From Candidatus Hodarchaeota archaeon (GTDB taxonomy: Archaea; Asgardarchaeota; Heimdallarchaeia; Hodarchaeales; Hodarchaeaceae), in assembly GCA_016840035.1 (NCBI GenBank), contig JAEOTC010000011.1, positions 1 through 11,836 of the forward strand: a stretch of DNA of 11,836 bases. The letters are read 5' to 3'. A model generated the notes under the pieces. That model ran no database searches. It was not told where the DNA came from and was given only the letters and a program-made list of their open reading frames with translations. Both the position numbers and the translations under genes were made by a program. This document shows, one piece after another, positions 54 to 11,836 of the stretch. Positions within the stretch are counted from its first letter, which is position 1, and each line of letters starts with the position of its first letter.

Positions 54-81
54 GTCTAATGTCTGTCTTTTTGATTTTCGG
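54..81 (+). repeat. Remnant (3' end only) of the inter-gene direct repeat
   Basis: gtctaatgtctgtctttttgattttcgg matches the 3' end of the copy at 2313-2340 (gtctgatgtctgtctttttaattttcgg) with 2 mismatches in 28 nt. The upstream part of the repeat is not clearly recognisable. Confidence 0.65.
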
Positions 82-197
82 GGCTTGAGGATTTGCATTT
101 GATGTTTATTTCTAGTAAGAAAAAATCCATCCAGGTGAAAATTCAGTATGTTTTTTTAGTTCTTTGTGAATTCATATAGGTCGAACGGTTTTTCGCG

Positions 198-797
198 ATG
201 CACAAATATATCAAGGTGGGTCTAATTGGAGTTCTCATCTTCTTCTCTACATTTTTCTTTCTCTTCTTTTCTTCTGGGGGAATTCCTCCTCCACAGTATA
301 TTATTCATTCTTCCATCGATCTATCTAATGTAAATGGATTTGATAGTAATAATGACACCGAAATCGACACTATTAGAATAAATTTATTTAATTCTGGTTT
401 TAGGACCGAGCAACTCATTAATATTGATTTCACGCTGATGGATAAGAATTGGAATTTGACGAATTCGACTTATCCGTTTGAATTATTACCCGTTGAGGTT
501 GGTGATATAACTTTATCAGCGGTATCCAATAATGATCAAATTAGTTCTTTTGATGAGATTTATATCGATTTTTATTTTGCCAGTGCGGGGACTAAACCAG
601 CCTTCACTCTTACTGATAATGATATCATATGGCAAGAAGAGAGTTCATTCAGCTTACGAAATAGGGTAGAAATTGATAAAGTTTATGTAGATACTCAATT
701 ATTTGTGGAATCTCTTTTATATTATGCACTTCTCAGTTTAGGCATCACTTTTCTGATCTTATTTATCTACTTGATCCTATTTAAAAGGGATGTATAA
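198..797 (+). CDS. Hypothetical membrane protein with N- and C-terminal TM helices and an extracellular beta-rich domain
   Basis: 199-aa ORF with hydrophobic N-terminus (VGLIGVLIFFSTFFFLFF) and C-terminus (LLYYALLSLGITFLILFIYLILF-KR). The acidic Asn/Asp-rich middle has N-x-S/T sequons. Confidence 0.8.
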   Translation: MHKYIKVGLIGVLIFFSTFFFLFFSSGGIPPPQYIIHSSIDLSNVNGFDSNNDTEIDTIRINLFNSGFRTEQLINIDFTLMDKNWNLTNSTYPFELLPVEVGDITLSAVSNNDQISSFDEIYIDFYFASAGTKPAFTLTDNDIIWQEESSFSLRNRVEIDKVYVDTQLFVESLLYYALLSLGITFLILFIYLILFKRDV

Positions 798-975
798 GAA
801 TTATTCAAAGAACTAATGATCAATACGACTGACACACGCGTACAGACTCATTTTCGTGCTAACTTATACGGTTTTCCTCTCTGTTATCATCTTATTGTAA
901 TTAAAGTATAAACCACTTGAGACGCTTCCAAGTATTAGAAAAAAAGAGCCATCTTATCATTCGCAGGATTCTTTC

Positions 976-1527
976 TCATTGAATGGTAAGAATGGCCTCT
1001 CCTATGGATTGTTCTAAACCCTTTTTTGTTTCCGTTTCAGTAACTTGGATAATTGTTTCCATCTTTGAAGAATAACGGCCATAGTCAGGGTGCGCTTCAC
1101 TATCAACAGAAAAAATAACAGCTACCGCGGGGTTATCGGGGTCATCGGGGTCATCAAGCTGAACTCGACCAATCCATAATGGAGTAGAACTTATAGTGGG
1201 TCGTGAAGAAAGTGACTTTGCTATATTTCGTAATAGTACGTGGGCTGTTTTACCTACAAGCATAATCCTGCGGATTTGGCTATCAATTCTTAGCAGTCCT
1301 TTCGTTTTTGTTTTTCGTTTTTCATAAGAAAATTCTTGAAGTCTGCTTGTTGTGTTAATAGAACGCTTTTTTTTCTGAGTAAGAGTGTCGAGAATTGCAT
1401 AAACTCTATTTCTTGTTACATCTAACTCTTTCGCTATGAACTCAGTGTCTTTTCCTTCGATGAAAAATTCAAGAACTTTTGACTCTTTTTCAGTCAAAAA
1501 TGTATCTTTAATCCACATACTTGACAT
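976..1527 (-). CDS. HTH DNA-binding protein / transcriptional regulator (Tfx- or LuxR/GerE-like N-terminal HTH)
   Basis: FLTEKESKVLEFFIEGKDTEFIAKELDVTRNRVYAIL fits the LT-x-(R/K)E-x-x-VL...G....IA.EL..T...V HTH pattern. Start moved from the ORF-track 1707 to ATG 1527 (or 1518), because the extra 60 aa largely translate a 66-bp AT-rich tandem repeat; a GGTG SD-like motif precedes ATG 1527. Confidence 0.8.
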   Translation of the reverse strand: MSSMWIKDTFLTEKESKVLEFFIEGKDTEFIAKELDVTRNRVYAILDTLTQKKKRSINTTSRLQEFSYEKRKTKTKGLLRIDSQIRRIMLVGKTAHVLLRNIAKSLSSRPTISSTPLWIGRVQLDDPDDPDNPAVAVIFSVDSEAHPDYGRYSSKMETIIQVTETETKKGLEQSIGEAILTIQ

Positions 1528-1662
1528 TCCTAAAGCACCACTTAATATCAGAATATTAGAATACATAAACGTTTGTAATAAAATATTAATAATTCCTAAA
1601 GCACCGCTTAATATCAGAATATTACTATATATAAATGTTTGTAATAAAACATTAATAATTCC
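1526..1662. repeat. 66-bp tandem duplication (2 copies + 5 bp) in the divergent intergenic region
   Basis: Unit attcctaaagcacc(a/g)cttaatatcagaatatta...ataaa(c/t)gtttgtaataaaa(t/c)attaata starts at 1526 and 1592; attcc recurs at 1658. Confidence 0.95.
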
Positions 1663-1668
1663 ATTTCC

Positions 1669-1690
1669 AACATATAATATATTATATGTT
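1669..1690. promoter_or_regulatory. Perfect 22-bp palindrome, candidate operator
   Basis: AACATATAATATATTATATGTT is its own reverse complement. It lies between the divergent HTH gene and the 1746 ORF. The operator role is inferred. Confidence 0.6.
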
Positions 1691-1745
1691 ATAAAGAGGG
1701 GAAACATTTTTATCTATTCAATACTATGTTATTACATGAGTTGAA

Positions 1746-2054
1746 ATGTCTAAACCCCCTCTTCAAATAGTTTTCGATTTAACGACTTTTTTGATAACAA
1801 CAATAGAAATAGAAGAGTCTACCTTTAAGGCCCGTAGAAAATACTTAAGAGACGTCTTCGAGAAGGCTGATGATCTTTGGCTAATAACATGGCAATATAA
1901 TATCACTGACGAAGAAATGGGAGCCAGATTAACTGTAGAAGAAATGGAAAAAATTGTATCCCCAATTATTCACACATTAAAATACTTTGAAGTAAGTACT
2001 TATCAAGAGATTCTTGAAATCCGTCTTGGATTTCAACACAAAATGATCCCTTGA
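1746..2054 (+). CDS. Hypothetical protein
   Basis: 102-aa ATG ORF with natural composition, divergent from the HTH gene; no family recognised. Confidence 0.6.
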   Translation: MSKPPLQIVFDLTTFLITTIEIEESTFKARRKYLRDVFEKADDLWLITWQYNITDEEMGARLTVEEMEKIVSPIIHTLKYFEVSTYQEILEIRLGFQHKMIP

Positions 2055-2234
2055 TTCTAAAAGATTTCATATGGTAAGACAGAACGACAACGATTGAAAA
2101 GACATCTTCGAAGATTGAAAGTCACCTTTTGAATTATGGATGAATAATCTTTTTATCAAATCCTATGAGATAAGACTTCGTTTAACCTTAAGCTGGATGT
2201 GAGAGTTGTGGAGAACCTTTGGCGGTGTGAATCG

Positions 2235-2340
2235 TGTGGAAAACGAGTAATGTTAGAAAATACTATCGTCAGGTGGCTTGAGGAGCGTAATTCTTTGAGG
2301 TTGAGTGTTTCGGTCTGATGTCTGTCTTTTTAATTTTCGG
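2235..2340 (+). repeat. Inter-gene direct repeat copy (lacks the 5' tgccac...cacgggct part)
   Basis: tgtggaaaacgagta...ctatcgtcaggtggcttgaggagcgtaattctttgagg...tttcggtctgatgtctgtctttttaattttcgg aligns with the copies at 3497, 4531, 5161 and 8981. Confidence 0.95.
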
Positions 2341-2373
2341 TGATCTAAAAGTCCTGAAATGTCTTGACCAACT

Positions 2374-3321
2374 TCAAATGCGTATTCTCTTGTTTTGTCT
2401 TCTTTGAGGAATCATAATGAGTGCTACTACACTCATCGCAACCACCACAGGAAGAAGCATGAGGGGCGTTTCTTCCGTGGTCGTCATGGTTGTGGTAATC
2501 GTTGTGGTTGTGGTCGTTGTAGTGGTAGTTGGTTGAGTAGTTGTGGTCGTGGGTGGGTGCGGGTCATCCACTGCTGTTTTCACCAGTCCATACACGGCCT
2601 CATCCTGATATAGATCAGAATGAAATAGATTTTCAACCTCTATATTATGTGCTCCGTCAAGTGGAGAAGATATATATGAGACCCACTCATCATCTCGACT
2701 ATAAATGGATGTATAATTGATAGTTCCTGGAATATGAGTACTGTTATAGATAATTCCCGAAATAGGATCTGTCCGATTCCCTAGAGTATCGTTTAAAATA
2801 CCCCCTGGAGTTTCATCCCCTTCGTTCATACTTGATGCCCATGGAAGATAATCAGGACATGAAGTATAACGAGAGGGAATATCCCCATGATGATCAGCCC
2901 CCAAACTCGCATAATCATCAACCTTATCTATCCCCCCCAAATATTTGATATAATACCTGCTACTCAATCCGCCCATACTATGTCCGACAAGATCAATTTT
3001 TTCCGCACCAGTGTCATTTAAAATGGTGTCTACCCATTGTTTTATCCTATTGGCATTGTTTATATTTGCTTGAACATCACAATTACTCCTATCATCAAAA
3101 TTATAGGCATAGAGAGCTGTCTCCAGCCATCCATCAGCTTTGAACCACTCTTTCATGGTGACCCAATCCATCATGCTTTTCGTCCATCCATGAAGAAATA
3201 AGATTGGATTATGGTCTTGTGACTCTTTAATTTTCGTTGTGCTGGCCTTAACACCGACAAAACAGGGTGAGATTAGAATTATCGTTACTACGATTAATAT
3301 CGCCTTATTTCGTCCACTCAC
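2374..3321 (-). CDS. Secreted, C-terminally anchored alpha/beta-hydrolase (Lipase_2 / LipA-like lipase-esterase)
   Basis: Signal peptide; oxyanion motif PILFLHGW; nucleophile elbow DLVGHSMGG; candidate Asp (YSRDD) and His (FHSDL); poly-Thr linker (2476-2550), TM helix and basic tail. Confidence 0.93.
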   Translation of the reverse strand: MSGRNKAILIVVTIILISPCFVGVKASTTKIKESQDHNPILFLHGWTKSMMDWVTMKEWFKADGWLETALYAYNFDDRSNCDVQANINNANRIKQWVDTILNDTGAEKIDLVGHSMGGLSSRYYIKYLGGIDKVDDYASLGADHHGDIPSRYTSCPDYLPWASSMNEGDETPGGILNDTLGNRTDPISGIIYNSTHIPGTINYTSIYSRDDEWVSYISSPLDGAHNIEVENLFHSDLYQDEAVYGLVKTAVDDPHPPTTTTTQPTTTTTTTTTTITTTMTTTEETPLMLLPVVVAMSVVALIMIPQRRQNKRIRI

Positions 3322-3496
3322 ATGTGATTCTCTCCGAAATTAGACAAATAGTATTAGATACGATTATCCCTTATATTAAGTTTTAGAACTCAAGATTCAT
3401 AATCCGCTTTTTTATTTATTCTTCTGAATCTATAGAGGTATAACCAGTCATTTGGCTATCGTCCTTTCATATTCCTCCTGTTTTGCAGAGTAACGA

Positions 3497-3639
3497 GCTG
3501 CCACTACTCGCACACGGGCTAATTGTCTATAAAATGGTGGAAAACGAGTATTGTCAAAAATCCTATCGTCAGTTGGCTTTAGGAGTGTAATTCTTCGAGT
3601 TGGAGTGTTTCGGTCTGGTGTCTGGTTTTTAGTTTTCGG
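3497..3639 (+). repeat. Inter-gene direct repeat, full-length copy
   Basis: gctgccactactcgcacacgggctaatt...gtggaaaacgagtatt...ctatcgtcagttggctttaggagtgtaattcttcgagttggagtgtttcggtctggtgtctggtttttagttttcgg. Confidence 0.95.
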
Positions 3640-3669
3640 AGAAGGTAAGTTTCAAATATTTGAATACTC

Positions 3670-4554
3670 ATGTCAATTGAAGTAGATCTCTTGGCACAAC
3701 CAGCTTTTACATATGACATTCAAAGATCTCCACCGCAACTGAACCCACTCTTTCAGCTCTTCTTCTTATGGGACCCACCTCCTTCATCCTATTCCATCCA
3801 TGATGACCGTGGGAATGACATTCTGATCATCCAACCGCTGAGTAAGAAAAGCATCAGGTTTGGGTGGCTTGTTGTTCGAAGGATTATCAGCTGGATTCTC
3901 CTCATTATCTTTTTTCAAGCCATTTTTGTCGTGATATCAAGTATCATGACTAATACTCCCACTCAGTTACTTGAATTAATCGCTCCAATACTTCCATTTA
4001 TCATACTCTTGTTTGGATTAGCAATACCTCAGTGGATTATAGGTAAATTCATTGGTGAATTTGAGAAATATCAACTCGTTCAAAGTCCTGATGGCACTCA
4101 GATGGGAGAAATAATAAAAACGGACTCTTTTGGAAACAAGTGGAAGATTTTAGACCCATTTAAGGAAAAGCATGCCAGTATATCGATATATGACCCCTCC
4201 CTCCGCATTTCAGGGAAGTACAGACAACTTAGAGAGGCTCAACTTCATACAGGAGAGGTACAAACAACTTTTGGCGTATACAAAGCAGAAGCGTCCTACC
4301 AAACTGAAAAACGCGGGGAGAAAAGGATTCAAAAAACTACTGAGTGCTCTATTACTGATTCAAATGACAATTTATCCTTCATAGTAAAATGGCTTGACTT
4401 TATAGAGTATTCCAAATCAGGAAGAGAATATAGAATTGATTCTTATGGGACTTTGACTCCTTTTCTTGTATGTTCAATATCTATTTGTTTAATTGAAAGG
4501 TTCCTCACTCGTTATCGTGAATATAGAATACCACGCCGGCCGGCTGGTATTTGA
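3670..4554 (+). CDS. Membrane protein with two TM helices and a possible LURP-one/scramblase (tubby-like) domain
   Basis: 294-aa ORF with two hydrophobic helices (approx. aa 72-125). Repeated 'Y/W-x-I-x-D-x-x-G' beta-hairpin motifs and the terminal EYRIDSYGTLTPFLVCSISICLIE strand-plus-helix are typical of LURP-one/scramblase folds. Recognised by pattern only. Confidence 0.7.
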   Translation: MSIEVDLLAQPAFTYDIQRSPPQLNPLFQLFFLWDPPPSSYSIHDDRGNDILIIQPLSKKSIRFGWLVVRRIISWILLIIFFQAIFVVISSIMTNTPTQLLELIAPILPFIILLFGLAIPQWIIGKFIGEFEKYQLVQSPDGTQMGEIIKTDSFGNKWKILDPFKEKHASISIYDPSLRISGKYRQLREAQLHTGEVQTTFGVYKAEASYQTEKRGEKRIQKTTECSITDSNDNLSFIVKWLDFIEYSKSGREYRIDSYGTLTPFLVCSISICLIERFLTRYREYRIPRRPAGI

Positions 4555-4656
4555 GAAAATTGTGGAAACTGAGTGGACCTATCGTCAGTTGGCTTTAGGA
4601 GTGTAATTCTTCGAGTAGGAGCGTGTCGGTCTGGCGTCTGGTTTTTTCCTTTTCGG
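4531..4656 (+). repeat. Inter-gene direct repeat copy; overlaps the stop codon of the upstream gene
   Basis: ggctggtatttgagaaaattgtggaaac...cctatcgtcagttggctttaggagtgtaattcttcgagtaggagcgtgtcggtctggcgtctggttttttccttttcgg; the 5' boundary is approximate. Confidence 0.92.
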
Positions 4657-4806
4657 AGCGAGAGTATTTGAATTCGTATGGGATAATTTTGGATATTCCC
4701 GCCCCTGTTGAACCTTTCTTCAAATTAGTAAGTTGAGTTATCCTGATAGAATTTTAAGGAGCTTTTGGTAAAACCTTATAAAAGTCAGTGATGCCCTTCA
4801 CATCCT

Positions 4807-5061
4807 ATGGCAAAAAAAAAGTATTACCTTTGTGTTATGTTTGTCGTTATTGGTCTGTTCCTCATCATTTCTGGTATCGTAGCATATGACCGTCGAATGG
4901 CTATGGATGGAAATACACGGGCAGCGACAAGAGCAAGAGATGAGCCCGCTTTCCTTGGATTATTCATTATTGGTGCATCTATTATCACTTCTCTAATAAT
5001 TTACTATGATGAACGCAGTAAGAAACAGTGGGAAGCACAGAAAACTTCTGGAAGCACTTGA
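4807..5061 (+). CDS. Small two-TM membrane protein
   Basis: 84 aa with a basic N-terminus and two hydrophobic helices. An aaaaccttataaa BRE/TATA-like motif lies about 30 nt upstream. Confidence 0.75.
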   Translation: MAKKKYYLCVMFVVIGLFLIISGIVAYDRRMAMDGNTRAATRARDEPAFLGLFIIGASIITSLIIYYDERSKKQWEAQKTSGST

Positions 5062-5160
5062 CGCTTGCAGAAAGTCCTGTATTGAGGTATTTTCCATTCA
5101 ATTTATATCATGTATTCCGATAACTAGTTACAGTGTAACCAATTGATCAGATCATTATGA

Positions 5161-5272
5161 ACGGGCTGATTATCAAATCATTGGGTAAAATTCTGAGAAA
5201 AATCTAGCATCAGTTGGTTTAGGAGCGTAAATCCTCGAGTAGGAGCAATTCGGTCTGATGTCTGCTTTTTCG
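5161..5272 (+). repeat. Inter-gene direct repeat, diverged copy overlapped by the 3' end of the 5219-5911 ORF
   Basis: acgggctgatt...tgagaaaaatctagcatcagttggtttaggagcgtaaatcctcgagtaggagcaattcggtctgatgtctgctttttcg. Confidence 0.9.
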
Positions 5273-5911
5273 TCTTTTAACCAAACCTCGTGTTGTAACA
5301 ATAGCCATGATGGGGGGAAATAGCTCAAATCCTGGACTTTTTAATCCCCCTGTTTCTGTGGTCAATTCTACCTCTCTGGTAACTTGGGAGTTATTTGTGG
5401 ATTTGAAATAATTGTAAGTTTTCCAACCAGTTTTCCAGTTCCATTTAGTGATGCTCTTCTGATGAAAGCTGCCATACTCTCCTTCAAGTTCATGAACAAT
5501 ATGATCTCCCTCTATAGAATAACCTTCCTGATCTTTATATTTTTCTTCCCAATAAGTCTTATTATCCGTTGTTTGACGAACTGCTTCCAGAAGTGACGTA
5601 TTTCTTGCGAATATAATTCCATTCATCTCAATGTTTCCATATACAATCGCATATTTAATTGACATAATTGTATATTTTACAGTTGATCCCTTTTGTAGTG
5701 TAATATTGAATTTATTTCCCTCTTCATCTGTTCCTTCTCGAATCTCTTGGTTATTTTTTGCTTTATCGATAAGTTTTGTATAAGTTAGCGTCAAAGTATC
5801 TCCTGCTTCAACTTTCCATTCGAAATTTTCCTTAGAAACACCCGCTATAACTATTTTCAAGAGTCCTAACCACATTATTATAATAACTAACCATATCAAT
5901 TTCTTTTTCAA
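5219..5911 (-). CDS. Secreted/surface protein with a degenerate PGF-CTERM-like tail
   Basis: TTG start with GAGGAGGT SD just upstream; MKKK plus hydrophobic signal peptide; C-terminal SPGFE-hydrophobic-KRRK. The last ~16 codons are read through the repeat. Confidence 0.85.
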   Translation of the reverse strand: MKKKLIWLVIIIMWLGLLKIVIAGVSKENFEWKVEAGDTLTLTYTKLIDKAKNNQEIREGTDEEGNKFNITLQKGSTVKYTIMSIKYAIVYGNIEMNGIIFARNTSLLEAVRQTTDNKTYWEEKYKDQEGYSIEGDHIVHELEGEYGSFHQKSITKWNWKTGWKTYNYFKSTNNSQVTREVELTTETGGLKSPGFELFPPIMAIVTTRGLVKRRKSRHQTELLLLEDLRS

Positions 5912-6030
5912 TGGTAAACCTCCTCGAGGAAACAGTCATAAAGATTCATTTTCCTCCTTGCTTAAAAGGTTAGTTCCTATTGAGTAGGCCTCCCTTTGTT
6001 ATCGGTATTAGATAAGTGAATCACAAAATC

Positions 6031-6130
6031 GTTGCCACTAATCGCACTCGGACTTTTTTAAGAAAAATTTGAGACCATTGTGGACACCGAGTCTTTTCTA
6101 CAAATACTCTTGTCAGGTAGCTTTAATTTT
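6031..6130 (+). repeat. Inter-gene direct repeat, degenerate copy with internal deletion
   Basis: gttgccactaatcgcactcggact...tttgagaccattgtggacaccgagtctttt...aaatactcttgtcaggtagcttt matches the 5' half, then jumps directly to aatttt. Confidence 0.8.
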
Positions 6131-6233
6131 GTGCCACAAAGTATTTTTTCACAAAACTCTTCATCAGATTTTTTAAAGGCGAAGAATACTGTTTCAGCTA
6201 TGGTTGTCATAGTGTCAAATCGAGGGATTTGAT

Positions 6234-8924
6234 TTGAAACGCAAATTTAACCAAGGGATGAGTACTTTTCTTACTTTATTCCTAATTTTAATTGTCATGG
6301 TACGATTGGGGAGTGGAAACCTTACAATACAAGAAGGACCAAGTCCCGTTTCATCTACTGAGGGATTTCCAGAGGAAATTCCCCCTTTAAGTATTTGTGC
6401 ATATACTCCTCATGCTCCTATCGAGATTTCGTCGGATACTGAATTTAATGCTGTTTCGGCAAGTGGGACTGGTACGATTTCTGATCCGTATATTCTCGAG
6501 GGCTGGCAAATTACTTCTACGGACGCTTCTGGTATTAATATTCATGATACAACTGTCCATTTCATCATTCGCAATTGTTTGATAACTCCTGGCAGTGACC
6601 ATTATGCTATTACTATAACCAATGTGGCACCTGGAACAGCCACAATCACGAATACTACTGGCGGGATCTTCCTTCAGGACGCCTCTAATTCCACTGTTAC
6701 TCATAATTTCTGTAACCAACAAGGAAGGAATGGTATTGATCTTCAAAATAGTCCGAATTCCACCGTAGCTGGCAATATTTGTTCTCAAAATGGGGTAGGT
6801 GGCATTTACCGTTATAATTCTGGTTCTTCTTCGCTTATCAACAATAATTTCAACCATAACGGTGATTGTGGGGTCTGGCTTGATGGATTTTCGACTCATT
6901 GCCTACTGGTCAATAATACCTGCAATGGGAATTACCGTGGTTTGGAAATTAAATCCTCCGGCCATACTCGCATTCTTAATAATACCTGCAATGACAATTC
7001 TCAATCAGGGATTTGGTTGTGGGAGGGGAGTTCCTTCTCTACAATAGCTAATAATACGTGTCGAAAGAATAGGTATGGTATTCAGCTTACTCGAGAAGGG
7101 GCATGGGATCCATCCACTGATTGTTTGGTTAAGTGGAATTTCCTCCAAGAAAATATTGAGTACGGCGTGCATCTCCCTAGTGGTAGTGCTAATCATGTTC
7201 TTCACCACAATTCCTTTTTGAATAATGGTGGAGGAGCTTCATCGTCTCAAGCTTTTGATGCTGGATCCAATAATCAGTGGTATGACTCCTCGGTTAACGA
7301 AGGCAATTATTGGTCTGACTACTCTGGTACTGGAGCGTATCTAATTGATGGTAGCGCGAGTGCTACCGATCCTTTCCCCTTTCTTCTTACTCGTCCTGAG
7401 GTGGGCCTTGTGGGTTATTGGAGTTTTGACGAGGGGGCTGGTGATACTGCATATGATCGATCTGGTAATGGTAACTATGGGACGATTTATGGTGCTAGTT
7501 GGACGAATGGTATTTCAGGAACGGCTCTGGAATTCACTCAGGGAGATTGGGTGGATTGTGGTAATGATTCATGCTTTGATGTAGGTACTTTTACCATTCA
7601 GGCTTGGCTGTATATTTATGGGTCCACTGGAGGATGTCATCAAATCTTAGCTAAATATCAAAATGAGGATCAGGTATTAGACGATGCTTATGTGTTTGAG
7701 CTATGGACAGATTCCCAGACGCTTGTATTGACACTATGCCAAGATGGAGAACCCCATTGGGTTGAGTGTTTTTCTTCTGAGCAAATTAGCTTCAATAAAT
7801 GGACCTTTGTCACAGGAACTTATAATGGTTCTGTTATGAGAGTTTTCATAAATGGTAAGGAGACTGGGTCTTTTGAAACTACCATTCCGGTTCGTAATAC
7901 TTCTTCGCCGTTGGTGATTGGAACTCACTGTAATGATGACAGTGGTAACTTCAACGGCCGTATCGACGAAGTCCGTATTTACAACCGATCTTTAAGTGCG
8001 GAGGAAGTCTTGTCCCATTTTAGTGAATTTTCTGTCCATGAACCCATTTCTACGCAGACTGTAACTCAAACAGAGTCACCCTATGTGACAGAACCACCCC
8101 GGCGTGGTATACCCCTACCCTCGGCAAACTTCATGGAATCTCTTCTGATGCTCTTTATGCTTTTAATTCTTGGGGTAGGAGGCCTTGTTGGGTTTGCATT
8201 ATGGCGTGAGGGCCTGAGTAAGAGACCTACTTCAAGGTTTTCTTCTGAAAGTAAGCCCCCTTCCATCACCAAACAACCCTTCCCGAAAGATTCTTCCAGA
8301 ATCGAATCCGAACTTTTTGTTAGATCTTCCGATCTTCCCTCTTCAAAACCCTCCGCTCAACCATTAACACCCAAGCCTCTTGACCCAGCTGGTGTGTCAG
8401 ATTGGAAACCTATTAAGGGAGTATCCCCTGTATCATCCCCTATAGTACCCACAATTGACGATAAACGGGCCTTATTTTCCTCCATTCAGTACCGAGTTCA
8501 AGACATTATCTATGAGCAAAGTGAAACTGACTTTTTTGTCCGTCTTATTCCCTATTTTGGGTCAATTAAAGAGATGACGACTCAATTTGATCGTAATCAA
8601 ATCATAATGCGAGGTTGGTTGGAACAGCGAGACAAACGACTAATAAAGCTCGAGTTGAAAATTGATGAATCACCTACACAATTTTCTTATGACGAGCCAT
8701 GGCGGGATATTACTCTCATCGGAAATGAGGACGTTATTCAAGGAATTAAACAGCGTAGAGAAATCGCTAACCGATTGATTTCTCTCGGTACAGCACTTGT
8801 CAAAGTCGAATCCCCTCCAATAGGAAGAATTTGTATTCAAATAACCTCTCAGGAAAGCAAGGAAACAATTAACAATGCTTTCTTCCTGCTCCAAGAGCTC
8901 CAATCGTTTATAGACGATTTTTAA
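6234..8924 (+). CDS. Large single-pass surface protein: right-handed beta-helix (NosD/PbH1) + LamG-like jellyroll + TM + Pro/Ser-rich linker + cytoplasmic domain
   Basis: Signal peptide; HAPIEISSD..F...GTG...DPYILEG cap; N-rich repeats (NNTCN.N...GI.L); GNYWSDY terminator; GLVGYWSFDEG.G..AYD.SG.GN.G...FNGRIDEVRIYNRSLSAEEV Laminin_G_3 signature; TM LLMLFMLLILGVGGLVGFALW. The start may be TTG 6234 or ATG 6258. Confidence 0.93.
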   Translation: MKRKFNQGMSTFLTLFLILIVMVRLGSGNLTIQEGPSPVSSTEGFPEEIPPLSICAYTPHAPIEISSDTEFNAVSASGTGTISDPYILEGWQITSTDASGINIHDTTVHFIIRNCLITPGSDHYAITITNVAPGTATITNTTGGIFLQDASNSTVTHNFCNQQGRNGIDLQNSPNSTVAGNICSQNGVGGIYRYNSGSSSLINNNFNHNGDCGVWLDGFSTHCLLVNNTCNGNYRGLEIKSSGHTRILNNTCNDNSQSGIWLWEGSSFSTIANNTCRKNRYGIQLTREGAWDPSTDCLVKWNFLQENIEYGVHLPSGSANHVLHHNSFLNNGGGASSSQAFDAGSNNQWYDSSVNEGNYWSDYSGTGAYLIDGSASATDPFPFLLTRPEVGLVGYWSFDEGAGDTAYDRSGNGNYGTIYGASWTNGISGTALEFTQGDWVDCGNDSCFDVGTFTIQAWLYIYGSTGGCHQILAKYQNEDQVLDDAYVFELWTDSQTLVLTLCQDGEPHWVECFSSEQISFNKWTFVTGTYNGSVMRVFINGKETGSFETTIPVRNTSSPLVIGTHCNDDSGNFNGRIDEVRIYNRSLSAEEVLSHFSEFSVHEPISTQTVTQTESPYVTEPPRRGIPLPSANFMESLLMLFMLLILGVGGLVGFALWREGLSKRPTSRFSSESKPPSITKQPFPKDSSRIESELFVRSSDLPSSKPSAQPLTPKPLDPAGVSDWKPIKGVSPVSSPIVPTIDDKRALFSSIQYRVQDIIYEQSETDFFVRLIPYFGSIKEMTTQFDRNQIIMRGWLEQRDKRLIKLELKIDESPTQFSYDEPWRDITLIGNEDVIQGIKQRREIANRLISLGTALVKVESPPIGRICIQITSQESKETINNAFFLLQELQSFIDDF

Positions 8925-8980
8925 TTCATTCATTCTTCGTGTCGATGTTTGACTAGTTAATCCATTATAAGAACTCATAA

Positions 8981-9120
8981 TTGCCACTAGTACACGGGCT
9001 AATTTTTGAGAAAATTGTGGAAAACGAGTATTTTGAGAAAAAACTATCGTCAGGTGGCTTGAGGAACGTAAATCTTCGCGTAGGGGTGTTTCTGTCTGAT
9101 GTCTGATTTTTAATTTTCGG
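8981..9120 (+). repeat. Inter-gene direct repeat, full-length copy (last in the window)
   Basis: ttgccactagtacacgggctaatttttgagaaaattgtggaaaacgagtatt...ctatcgtcaggtggcttgaggaacgtaaatcttcgcgtaggggtgtttctgtctgatgtctgatttttaattttcgg. Confidence 0.95.
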
Positions 9121-9323
9121 AAATCCAAAAGGCCTGAAATGTCTTGACCCACTTATTTGCGCTTTCTCTTGATTTGTCGTCTTTGAGGAATCAGGAGGAG
9201 TGTCACTACACTCATCGCCATCACCACAGGAATGAATGTCAGGGGAGCTTCTTCCGTGGTCGTCGTGGTTGTCGTTGTTGTGGTTGTGGTAGTTGTTGTA
9301 GTCGTTGATGTTGTAGTCGTTGT
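9121..9323. repeat. Diverged duplicate of 2341-2550 (3' flank, TM anchor and Thr linker of the lipase gene)
   Basis: Shared blocks cctgaaatgtcttgacc, tctttgaggaatca, actacactcatcgc and ttcttccgtggtcgtc. The proteins read EETPLMLLPVVVAMSVVALIMIPQRRQNKR vs EEAPLTFIPVVMAMSVVTLLLIPQRRQIKR. Confidence 0.92.
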
Positions 9324-9524
9324 CCTCTGTGGTTGGTAATAGATCCGTTGATCTACAATCGATTGATAAAAATCCTTGTTGCGTTTGATTTCTCCAATGA
9401 TGGTCTTCCCTTCGAAATCTCCTGCTTTTAACAGCGCATTTTCCACACGATATCCCAAATAGGTTAACTCAGCTGTAAGGATAGCGGGTTCTCGGTTGTC
9501 TATTCGAATGGTGTGATTCAACAT
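9153..9524 (-). pseudogene. Chimeric ORF: truncated ERCC4/XPF-like nuclease N-terminus fused in frame to a poly-Thr + TM anchor
   Basis: IRIDNRE...LG......L.AGDF......EIKRNKDFYQSIVDQRIYYQ resembles the ERCC4 D-x-RE / GD-xn-ERK-x3-D / S-I-x-D-x-R pattern but stops after ~67 aa. The remainder copies the lipase tail, and there is no signal peptide. Confidence 0.7.
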
Positions 9525-9988: not shown

Positions 9989-11539
9989 TCATTCTTTTAA
10001 CAAATTTGGGATTTTCCACTTTAACCTTGACACATTAAACCACTTAAAATCAAGATTAAGAGGATATTGTTTTCGTATTATTGAAATAACCGTCCATTTG
10101 AGATCATTTTTTATCCATTTTACGAGTTTAGGAGTTAATCGAGCCCATATATAGATGGATTTCTCCCCAGAATAAATTTCACTAAATGGTATTAAGTTCA
10201 AAAATCGTTCTAACTGAAAAAACGGGATTTTATGTAGAATAATGCAATGCAAATCGAGAGAGAAATCGTACACCAGTCGCCAAGGCACAAATCCTATTTG
10301 AACTACCTGATGATTGTAATGTAACTGTTTTAACAACCCGACCTCGGTTCTAGAGAGACGATTAGAATCCTGATTATCAATTAATCTTAATGGAAGGTTT
10401 GAGTATGAATACTCTGGAGGATTCTTACAATATAACTTAATTATCTCCTTGGGCAATTGATGCTGGCTATAATACCACTGGAGATTAAATTCGGGGGTAA
10501 TAAAAAAAGAGTTTTTCTCTCTTTGTCTTTTTTTTGGATTTTTTGATTGTAATAATTGAGTCAACCTACGAAGTTTTGTTGGGCTTAATTCAATCCAGCC
10601 AATATTCTCTTGATAATGGTTTAAAGAGATACATTTGCGTACAGTTGTGATTTTTGACAATTCTCTTAAGATAATGTACCCCTGACGTTCGCAATTCTGA
10701 AGATAGGATTCTAAACGGTCTATATCCTCAGTAGGTACCAATAGAATGGCAATATAATTATTTGGTACTTTTCTAAAGCTATATACATCACTAACTGTTA
10801 ATACCGTGTTTGCAGGATTACGAAAATCGATAACATCTTCCAACGAAGTGGATTCTTGTAGTTGAAACTGAAAAACCAACCGATTCAAACCAAAAGCGGG
10901 TGAAAAAAAAAGGAAAAACCATCGTCCATCCATTAGAGTGAAGAAACGAGTTAATTCTTCAGATGGCTTGTTTTTTTTCGGAAACACCACATTCTTGACA
11001 ATAACGGCCTTGAGCTTACGAGGATCCAAGGCATATACCCCGTCTTCTGTGATGAAGGAAAAAATAGTCTTTAATATCCTAAGTTGAACATTTGTAAGTG
11101 GAACAAGGAGTTTATCACATGAATACTGCAATTGTTCCCAAGCAAGATCTGTTAATGGAATACTTTCGCGAACAAGTCCATAAACTCCTGGAGTGGTAGA
11201 GCTACCACGCAAATATTTTGTCAAGTACTCATAGAATGAATTTGCGTGAAATGTTGAGACATTTAACAAAATATTCGCAGTTGAAAAATAACTTTCAATA
11301 AACCAAAGGAAAGCTGTGTTCAAGTATTTTTTCGTTCCTATAACTCTCTCATTGTACTCTATTAAACGCTGTGAGAGCTTGGTTCTTTGGTAGTCGGCCT
11401 CTTCATAATGTTGAAGGACTGAGAGGAATTCCATTAGTAAATATTGATCAGCTGGCGGATACTCCTCAATATGAGCTGGGAGCTGTTCAATAATGGTTTT
11501 GATAAAACGTTTAAAACTCTCTCGACCTGGCCGAACCAA
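9989..11539 (-). CDS. Hypothetical 516-aa soluble protein, possibly a degenerate winged-helix/Lrp-like regulator
   Basis: Long uninterrupted ORF with TTG start and GAGGAG upstream; no TM. LTNVQLRILKTI and FSPAFGLNRLVFQF loosely resemble wHTH helix 1 and the Lrp linker (weak). Confidence 0.75.
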   Translation of the reverse strand: MVRPGRESFKRFIKTIIEQLPAHIEEYPPADQYLLMEFLSVLQHYEEADYQRTKLSQRLIEYNERVIGTKKYLNTAFLWFIESYFSTANILLNVSTFHANSFYEYLTKYLRGSSTTPGVYGLVRESIPLTDLAWEQLQYSCDKLLVPLTNVQLRILKTIFSFITEDGVYALDPRKLKAVIVKNVVFPKKNKPSEELTRFFTLMDGRWFFLFFSPAFGLNRLVFQFQLQESTSLEDVIDFRNPANTVLTVSDVYSFRKVPNNYIAILLVPTEDIDRLESYLQNCERQGYIILRELSKITTVRKCISLNHYQENIGWIELSPTKLRRLTQLLQSKNPKKRQREKNSFFITPEFNLQWYYSQHQLPKEIIKLYCKNPPEYSYSNLPLRLIDNQDSNRLSRTEVGLLKQLHYNHQVVQIGFVPWRLVYDFSLDLHCIILHKIPFFQLERFLNLIPFSEIYSGEKSIYIWARLTPKLVKWIKNDLKWTVISIIRKQYPLNLDFKWFNVSRLKWKIPNLLKE

Positions 11540-11669: not shown

Positions 11670-11672
11670 AAC

Positions 11673-11836
11673 GTGTTGGATTTGTGAGAGGAAGACGTTC
11701 TCAGTACGAGAGGAACGGGACGCCGGCGCCTCTAGTCTACGGGTTATCCGGAAGGGTACCGCCCGGCCGCCACGTGCCAAGCGATAAGTGCTGAATGCAT
11801 CTAAGCACGAAACGCACCTCGAAAAGACAAATCCAC
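11673..11836 (+). rRNA. rrl: 23S (LSU) rRNA domain VI segment (H94-H97, including the sarcin-ricin loop); runs off the window edge
   Basis: SRL AGTACGAGAGGAAC at 11703-11716 closed by cgttct/gggacg; GATAAGTGCTGAATGCATCTAAGCACGAAAC matches H97; tggatttgt (11677-11685) pairs perfectly with acaaatcca (11827-11835) as H94; sharp rise in GC. Confidence 0.93.

Follow-up and report, generated by a model that had tools for sequence, protein, structure and literature searches.

Gene cassettes separated by pseudo-copies of the 23S rRNA gene tail in a Hodarchaeales archaeon

The 11,836-nucleotide stretch analysed here (the window) is the complete contig JAEOTC010000011.1 (C271) of a Candidatus Hodarchaeota genome assembly (G000; 4.3 Mb, 293 contigs) and carries an array of genes separated by co-oriented copies of a direct repeat. 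Judged by its sequence, the repeat derives from the 23S ribosomal RNA (rRNA) gene, as a pseudo-copy of its 3' end, shortened at the front, that continues into the 3' trailer and a run of T residues (T-run), and the 23S share of the copies is the last 25 to ~330 nt, up to the whole of domain VI. An rRNA-tail-anchored cassette island that is reshuffled by ordinary homologous recombination is the account that we favour, with moderate confidence. An earlier note, made from the same DNA, had read the repeat as a recombination site in its own right; this reading is superseded by the identity of the repeat as 23S rRNA tail and trailer and by break points that spread over more than 100 nt.

Repeat copies were detected by repeat finding, alignment and a profile search with a profile derived from six window copies. 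Approximately two dozen copies extend a further 100-330 nt upstream, and the extension at G000:C162 4584-4278 matches positions 2723-2973 of the 2987 positions of the Rfam archaeal large-subunit (LSU) model, LSU_rRNA_archaea (199 bits, E 4e-59); in a relative, G008, the segment C8 53937-54756 corresponds to positions 2545-2987 of the same model (328 bits). At its 5' side every short copy has a conserved block (…GCCACTAATCGCACACGGGCT), which is the final stretch of 23S. Hairpin hp1 was placed at the mature 23S 3' end because the LSU match of G008 reaches the last model position at GGGCTAACCGTG, and the remainder of the repeat (GTGGAAA…, hairpin hp2, …AGGAGTC…, GGTCTGATGTCTG and the T-run) is the 3' trailer. 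Two sequence subtypes of the repeat emerged during profile iteration, and that of the window resembles the genuine trailer of G008. The remaining half of the G008 operon (16S, spacer and 5' part of 23S) is on G008:C9, and its spacer can pair with the trailer, for example in a 10-bp GGCUUAAGGA/UCCUUAAGCU helix. Spacer-trailer pairing is expected of an archaeal processing stem, and the trailer is probably one strand of the pre-rRNA processing stem. In the 16S rRNA gene region of the same operon, a 229-aa open reading frame (ORF) with LAGLIDADG_3 domains was found on the minus strand (L097, G008:C9, 2452-3141), probably marking an rRNA intron with a homing endonuclease. The G008 23S match also contains a 337-nt insert near LSU position 2650 (L088, G008:C8, ~1875-2280, minus strand), beside which ~16 model positions are missing and which may be an intron or a scar.

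Within the window, the seven co-oriented copies or remnants described in the earlier note were all recovered on the plus strand by repeat finding, alignment and profile, with a repeat length of ~105-150 bp and six-copy profile E-values of 1e-40 to 4e-15 for all except the remnant at 54-81; the sequence blocks said to be shared between them were present in the alignment and the indels between copies were genuine. The remnant at 54-81 retains the final trailer bases and T-run only (28 nt, 93% identical to 2313-2340; weak profile match, E 5). The copy at 2226-2343 consists of the trailer part and T-run, its 23S part being lost or diverged (E 1.3e-30; positions 334-429 of the extended hidden Markov model, HMM), and its closest relative, mutually, is the complete short copy at 8982-9124 (BLAST, profile; HMM 301-431). 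The copy at 3493-3645 is likewise a complete short tail, with ~25 nt of 23S end (GCTGCCACTACTCGCACACGGGCT), hp1, trailer and T-run (HMM 294-430; comparison with the G008 23S end). Further tail copies were placed at 4528-4658 (profile E 1.3e-32) and 5156-5278 (profile E 1.3e-27), and a 3'-truncated one, comprising the 23S end, hp1 and the first trailer blocks, at 6031-6133 (HMM 298-367). An eighth plus-strand copy was found from 11671 by BLAST, alignment and profile and is cut off by the contig end (11671-11836; HMM 2-166, E 8e-59). It was identified as the start of a long tail copy, holding 23S domain VI, because window 11671-11835 shares 93% identity with the 23S of G008 from ~LSU position 2718 on (BLAST, alignment) and the DNA upstream of 11671 is not rRNA by alignment and profile. 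Rfam cmscan of the whole window gave no match at E <= 1 and also missed the LSU fragment at 11671-11835, a 165-nt stretch, showing that this search may overlook a short piece of rRNA where a contig ends. No tRNA or tmRNA was found in the window.

In G000, BLAST detected copies on C271, C142 and C159 only, and iteration of the nhmmer profile raised the total to ~35-40 copies on 13 contigs. Eleven of these contigs are short and add up to ~80 kb; on the twelfth, the 147-kb C28, the copies occupy the first 10 kb and are followed by typical Asgard genes (Ras and RagA GTPases), and the thirteenth, C184, has a single weak match. In a covariance-model scan of relatives, one of the checks proposed at the outset, 15 of 21 genomes of the genus had the repeat, clustered into arrays, and 20 genomes sampled elsewhere in the order and class gave no match. 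Across the genus 163-170 copies were placed on 42 contigs of 10 genomes, and strands were never mixed within a contig. A dispersed repetitive extragenic palindromic element or miniature inverted-repeat transposable element, the latter already discounted in the earlier note, is ruled out by this single orientation per contig and by the confinement to ~80 kb of short contigs and the start of C28. Arrays in relatives include G008:C8 (54.7 kb), G004:C196 (at least 34 kb) and G014:C70, and that of G008:C8 ends inside the 23S match at LSU positions 2545-2987, itself cut by the contig end. In the complete genome G010 the copies are few and degenerate, and the stretches examined yielded no rRNA gene. 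The units are 0.5-3 kb long. Among 115 intervals (median 1.9 kb) 51 hold one ORF, 35 two and 13 three, so that the layout of one gene per interval, although it agrees with the ORF list of the window from 2235 to 9120 (strands -,+,+,-,+; products mutually unrelated), is for the genus the mode and not a rule. The mixed orientation of the genes is borne out more widely, with 129 array ORFs on the strand of the repeat and 116 on the opposite strand in these intervals.

Relatives do not share a cassette order: when the arrays were compared all against all by BLAST, cassettes common to sister species at 75-97% identity were found in different arrangements. A beta-helix cassette is present at G000:C159 2010-5236, G004:C196 81565-84799 and G014:C70 13456-16593, and both of its neighbours differ in all three genomes. 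G000 carries an extra cassette between two cassettes, B and D, unlike G004, and the G004 junction B|D is a hybrid: its first part, as far as GTGGAAA, matches the G000 repeat that follows B, and the rest matches the one that precedes D. Thirty junctions had a flank with a homologue on a different contig; the left flank only was shared in 11, the right only in 18 and both in 1. Break points from change-point estimates, which have wide intervals, fell at HMM 146-319 for left-shared and 342-441 for right-shared junctions, and by eye at ~300-320, 340, 360, 375 and 385 on the 466-position profile. If a single enzyme cut at one place, left and right homology should meet at one coordinate, which was not observed; a fixed crossover beside hp1, suggested by the first case, was rejected by further cases. 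Trailers run unbroken into downstream cassettes common to genomes.

The domain VI fold is kept in 12 long copies (RNAalifold; 92 pairs, 21 changed on both sides, few broken), and hp1 and hp2 covary, with 85.7% of cells paired compared with 42-62% when the partner is slid and with 0 of 500 shuffles reaching the observed score. AU-rich palindromic mini-hairpins of the TTTCTT-NNN-AAGAAA type are found at no fewer than five places in the 23S tail and trailer of many copies (for example L074:5889-6358, L075:794-1279 and L062:2561-3002), where they interrupt predicted stems or replace loops in combinations that vary as a mosaic between copies; these inserts sit where a working RNA tolerates expansions. 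The tails of the G008:C8 array are 72-83% like the genuine tail, with no trend with distance, and one copy ~29 kb off is 97% like it. Simple serial duplication was discarded, as the expected gradient of similarity to the genuine tail along this array was not seen. Most tails, we infer, were functioning as real rRNA ends of separate lineages when they diverged, and their displacement came afterwards. Single copies folded no better than shuffles on either strand (z +0.4 to +1.3) and formed no end-to-end hairpin, and RNAalifold on a 20-copy alignment gave no structure. The T-run is at a fixed place in nearly all copies, and many copies are truncated on one side or the other. A structured small-RNA gene, considered from the covariation of hp1 and hp2 and from the T-run, was dropped since the rRNA identity accounts for both.

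Searches for integron features and recombination enzymes were carried out alongside. The attC core pair RYYYAAC...GTTRRRY occurred in 0 of 87 full copies on either strand (0.9 expected by chance), which, with the lack of an end-to-end hairpin, upholds the earlier view that the repeat is not an attC site. Tyrosine recombinases (PF00589) numbered one to three in each of five genomes with none on array contigs, the best-scoring, genus-wide ones being presumably XerA-like; none was found at the array boundary of C28, and no recombinase was found in the 12 kb beside the G008 rRNA operon. Serine recombinases (PF00239) were likewise absent from array contigs, the HUH, DDE and TnpB families not being searched, and the RVT_1 (PF00078) reverse transcriptase had no match in five genomes. 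LAGLIDADG matches all fell outside the arrays; most are in open frames of 900-2,500 aa, which we take to be inteins, and one is in the probable 16S intron. The proposed linkage to a tyrosine or serine recombinase or reverse transcriptase gene was thus not found. Of the gene-shuffling platform served by a recombinase encoded outside the window, the array and its turnover were retained and the private site was not, and matches to tyrosine and serine recombinases lie only on array-free contigs, HUH enzymes not having been searched.

Features of a recombination type are all present, namely the same cassette between homologous flanks, changing neighbours, varying crossovers and no dedicated enzyme among the families searched. 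With the scattered breaks, no attC site and no enzyme found, the simplest account is therefore a stack behind the 23S gene that is reshuffled by recombination. The window would be a piece of a large island behind the 23S gene, composed of small gene packets each bounded by a tail. An incoming packet would carry a functional tail with it and shift the resident one downstream, whereby tails of different origin would accumulate in one orientation, and homologous recombination between tails would then add, remove and rearrange packets, both inside one genome and across species of the genus. Such recombination is possible because each packet is flanked by the same kind of sequence, and a dedicated integrase would be unnecessary. 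Both the joint arrival of packet and working tail and the role of recombination as the driving force are proposed here as the probable course of events. Several points weigh against this account. The 5' ends of at least 12 long copies coincide, to within a few bases, at the domain V/VI border (~LSU 2718) with unrelated DNA upstream, and this common start, which is not producible by recombination inside tails, hints at a specific cut or join, so that a site-specific step stays in play. The copies of one genome are 60-83% alike, which is low for efficient homologous recombination, and no genuine rRNA operon is assembled in G000, so that the anchoring rests on one relative. The energy of the leader-trailer duplex was not clearly better than that of shuffles (z -1.7), and the enzyme content of the cargo was judged from the 25 commonest of 116 Pfam families.

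The 23S tail might be the landing pad of a dedicated, unrecognised Asgard gene-capture system, in which an enzyme or an activity linked to pre-rRNA would cut at two defined points, the border of domains V and VI and the mature 3' end; we regard this as a possibility of rather low probability. About equally doubtful is a site-specific recombinase or nuclease of an unrecognised family, encoded elsewhere, that would use the 23S tail as its attachment site while gene conversion blurs the crossover. The strict co-orientation of the copies, cassettes of single-gene size and the sharp recurrence of the 5' boundary where domain VI begins, with differing upstream DNA, are consistent with this, as are the starts of many short copies, which cluster near GCTGCCAC; however, no tyrosine or serine recombinase lies on or beside the arrays or the rRNA operon, the break points are dispersed over more than 100 nt, and the identity with rRNA and trailer makes a separate-site explanation of the repeat unnecessary. 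The array could alternatively be what is left of classical integrative islands that targeted the 23S 3' end, each by an integrase of its own in the manner of islands at tRNA or tmRNA genes, and have since lost their integrase and most of their cargo. Direct repeats of an RNA-gene 3' end around inserts are the signature of such islands, of which the tandem ssrA islands of Dehalococcoides are one case (PMC3146451), and the varied lengths of the 23S part would match different attP sites. This origin is nevertheless unlikely, given that no integrase or remnant of one was found on the array contigs of five genomes, that the units are just 0.5-3 kb with a median interval of 1.9 kb, and that the same small units recur intact in several species.

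The two other explanations considered address the tails themselves. Selection of the tails as modules that act as terminator and RNA-processing signal and shield cassettes from read-through from the strong rRNA promoter, so that their covariation would reflect a present function, would be compatible with the other readings and could explain the fixed position of the T-run in nearly all copies, the conserved blocks and the covarying hairpins, but is hard to reconcile with the many copies truncated on either side, with cassette genes in both directions and with single copies that fold no better than shuffles, and we consider it quite improbable. Retroposition of 3' fragments of pre-rRNA, with a common 3' end at the terminator and variable 5' truncation, would produce the mostly constant 3' end at the T-run, the variable 5' end and the 'full-length' class that are seen; yet the RVT_1 search of the five genomes returned nothing, the copies are clustered in an oriented array rather than dispersed, and their trailers continue without a break into downstream cassettes shared between genomes. 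This reading is already disfavoured and is very improbable.

The genes of the window were delineated from the ORF list and a family scan. Between the remnant at 54-81 and the copy at 2226-2343, three cassette ORFs were found at 198-797 (plus strand, 199 aa, no family), 976-1707 (minus strand, 243 aa, weak GerE/LuxR helix-turn-helix) and 1746-2054 (plus strand, 102 aa, no family); a 66-bp tandem duplication (91% identity) is located at 1526-1657, within the second of these. The interval genes encode a class-2 lipase-like alpha/beta hydrolase with a Thr-rich C-terminal region at 2374-3321 (minus strand; Lipase_2, 5e-15), a probable membrane protein of 294 aa at 3670-4554 (plus strand), an 84-aa product at 4807-5061 (plus strand) with faint, below-threshold matches to transmembrane families only, a product of up to 230 aa without family at 5219-5911 (minus strand), and an 896-aa beta-helix (NosD) and LamG protein at 6234-8924 (plus strand). 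A 123-aa cassette ORF at 9153-9524 (minus strand; internal repeat, family scan) has the Thr-rich C-terminal region in common with the lipase gene, the two gene 3' ends sharing a 180-nt segment that encodes this region (2379-2558 and 9158-9337, 77% identity). The last gene, at 9989-11539 (minus strand; homologue search, structure model), encodes a protein of 516 aa whose structure model (predicted local distance difference test score 91) has the siroheme decarboxylase NirDL as its nearest solved fold. Its family has no Pfam entry, every source-named homologue comes from metagenome-assembled genomes of Asgard archaea, and G000 holds six paralogues (window, C105, C41, C28:21516-23024, C111 and C57). 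As a candidate enzyme beside the long tail this ORF was rejected, owing to its paralogous family, its NirDL-like fold and the lack of a steady link to tails, and the modelled protein is read as cargo.

Cargo was surveyed more broadly in 130 cassette ORFs from the arrays of six genomes, using the 25 commonest of 116 Pfam families. The commonest cargo is Ras-family GTPases (15 of the 130), a class regarded as part of the eukaryote-like signature proteins of Asgard archaea, followed by methyltransferases (6) and by nitroreductases, RagA/Gtr1-type GTPases and beta-helix proteins (3 each); TPR, LRR, Fic and MFS proteins are also among the cassette ORFs. The interest of the island stems from its size (~80 kb or more in G000 and 55 kb in a relative), its quick turnover between species, its cargo and its lineage. 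If the favoured account is true, the arrays would rank as a third kind of cassette store, next to integrons and integrase-borne islands, in which the conserved end of a single rRNA operon serves as a portable, genus-wide homology arm for every packet. Should a dedicated capture system be at work instead, the island would be a functional analogue of integrons that stores and spreads eukaryote-like signature genes such as those for Ras-family GTPases. The finding also explains why metagenome assemblies break at these regions and at rRNA genes, and orphan rRNA fragments in such genomes are to be read as scars and not as split rRNA genes.

No description of such rRNA-tail cassette arrays was found in the literature, and the rRNA-tail cassette island is a new form of the islands known at the ends of RNA genes. 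Tandem islands at the 3' ends of tRNA and tmRNA genes, the nearest kind known, carry integration modules, are flanked by direct repeats that copy the 3' end of the gene, stack in one orientation and vary in content between strains. The present arrays resemble them in that the flanking direct repeats copy the 3' end of the target RNA gene, but differ in that the target is the 23S tail with its trailer, the units are of one or two genes without an integration module, the arrays lack an integrase and the crossover position is not fixed. Exchange of cassettes by flanking homology is known from the minimal mobile elements of Neisseria and from capsule and O-antigen loci. As in this type of exchange, alternative blocks lie between conserved flanks and are swapped without an element-encoded enzyme at variable crossovers, whereas here the flank is rRNA-derived and tandemly repeated dozens of times, and one locus stores many cassettes. 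For RNA genes as targets, the ssrA-specific islands of Dehalococcoides are described as integrating at a single-copy RNA gene (PMC3146451). With sedentary chromosomal integrons and clusters of attC sites lacking integron integrases the arrays have in common long repeat-gene-repeat series, small cassettes and a content that varies between relatives. However, archaeal integrons have attC folds and ORFs 'generally in the same orientation' (Ghaly et al. 2022, PMC9668308), unlike the present arrays, in which there are no attC core sites or fold and no IntI, the genes run both ways and the repeat is a pseudo-fragment of rRNA. The R1 and R2 elements of animals and HeimM2, an insertion that separates the 16S gene from a tRNA gene in Ca. 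Heimdallarchaeum (PMC8813620, where tail-delimited arrays are not reported), likewise have conserved, single-copy rRNA loci as landing sites. HeimM2 thus offers a parallel, from a related Asgard lineage, for an element lodged next to an rRNA gene; R1, R2 and HeimM2 carry their own endonuclease or reverse transcriptase and build no rRNA-tail cassette arrays.

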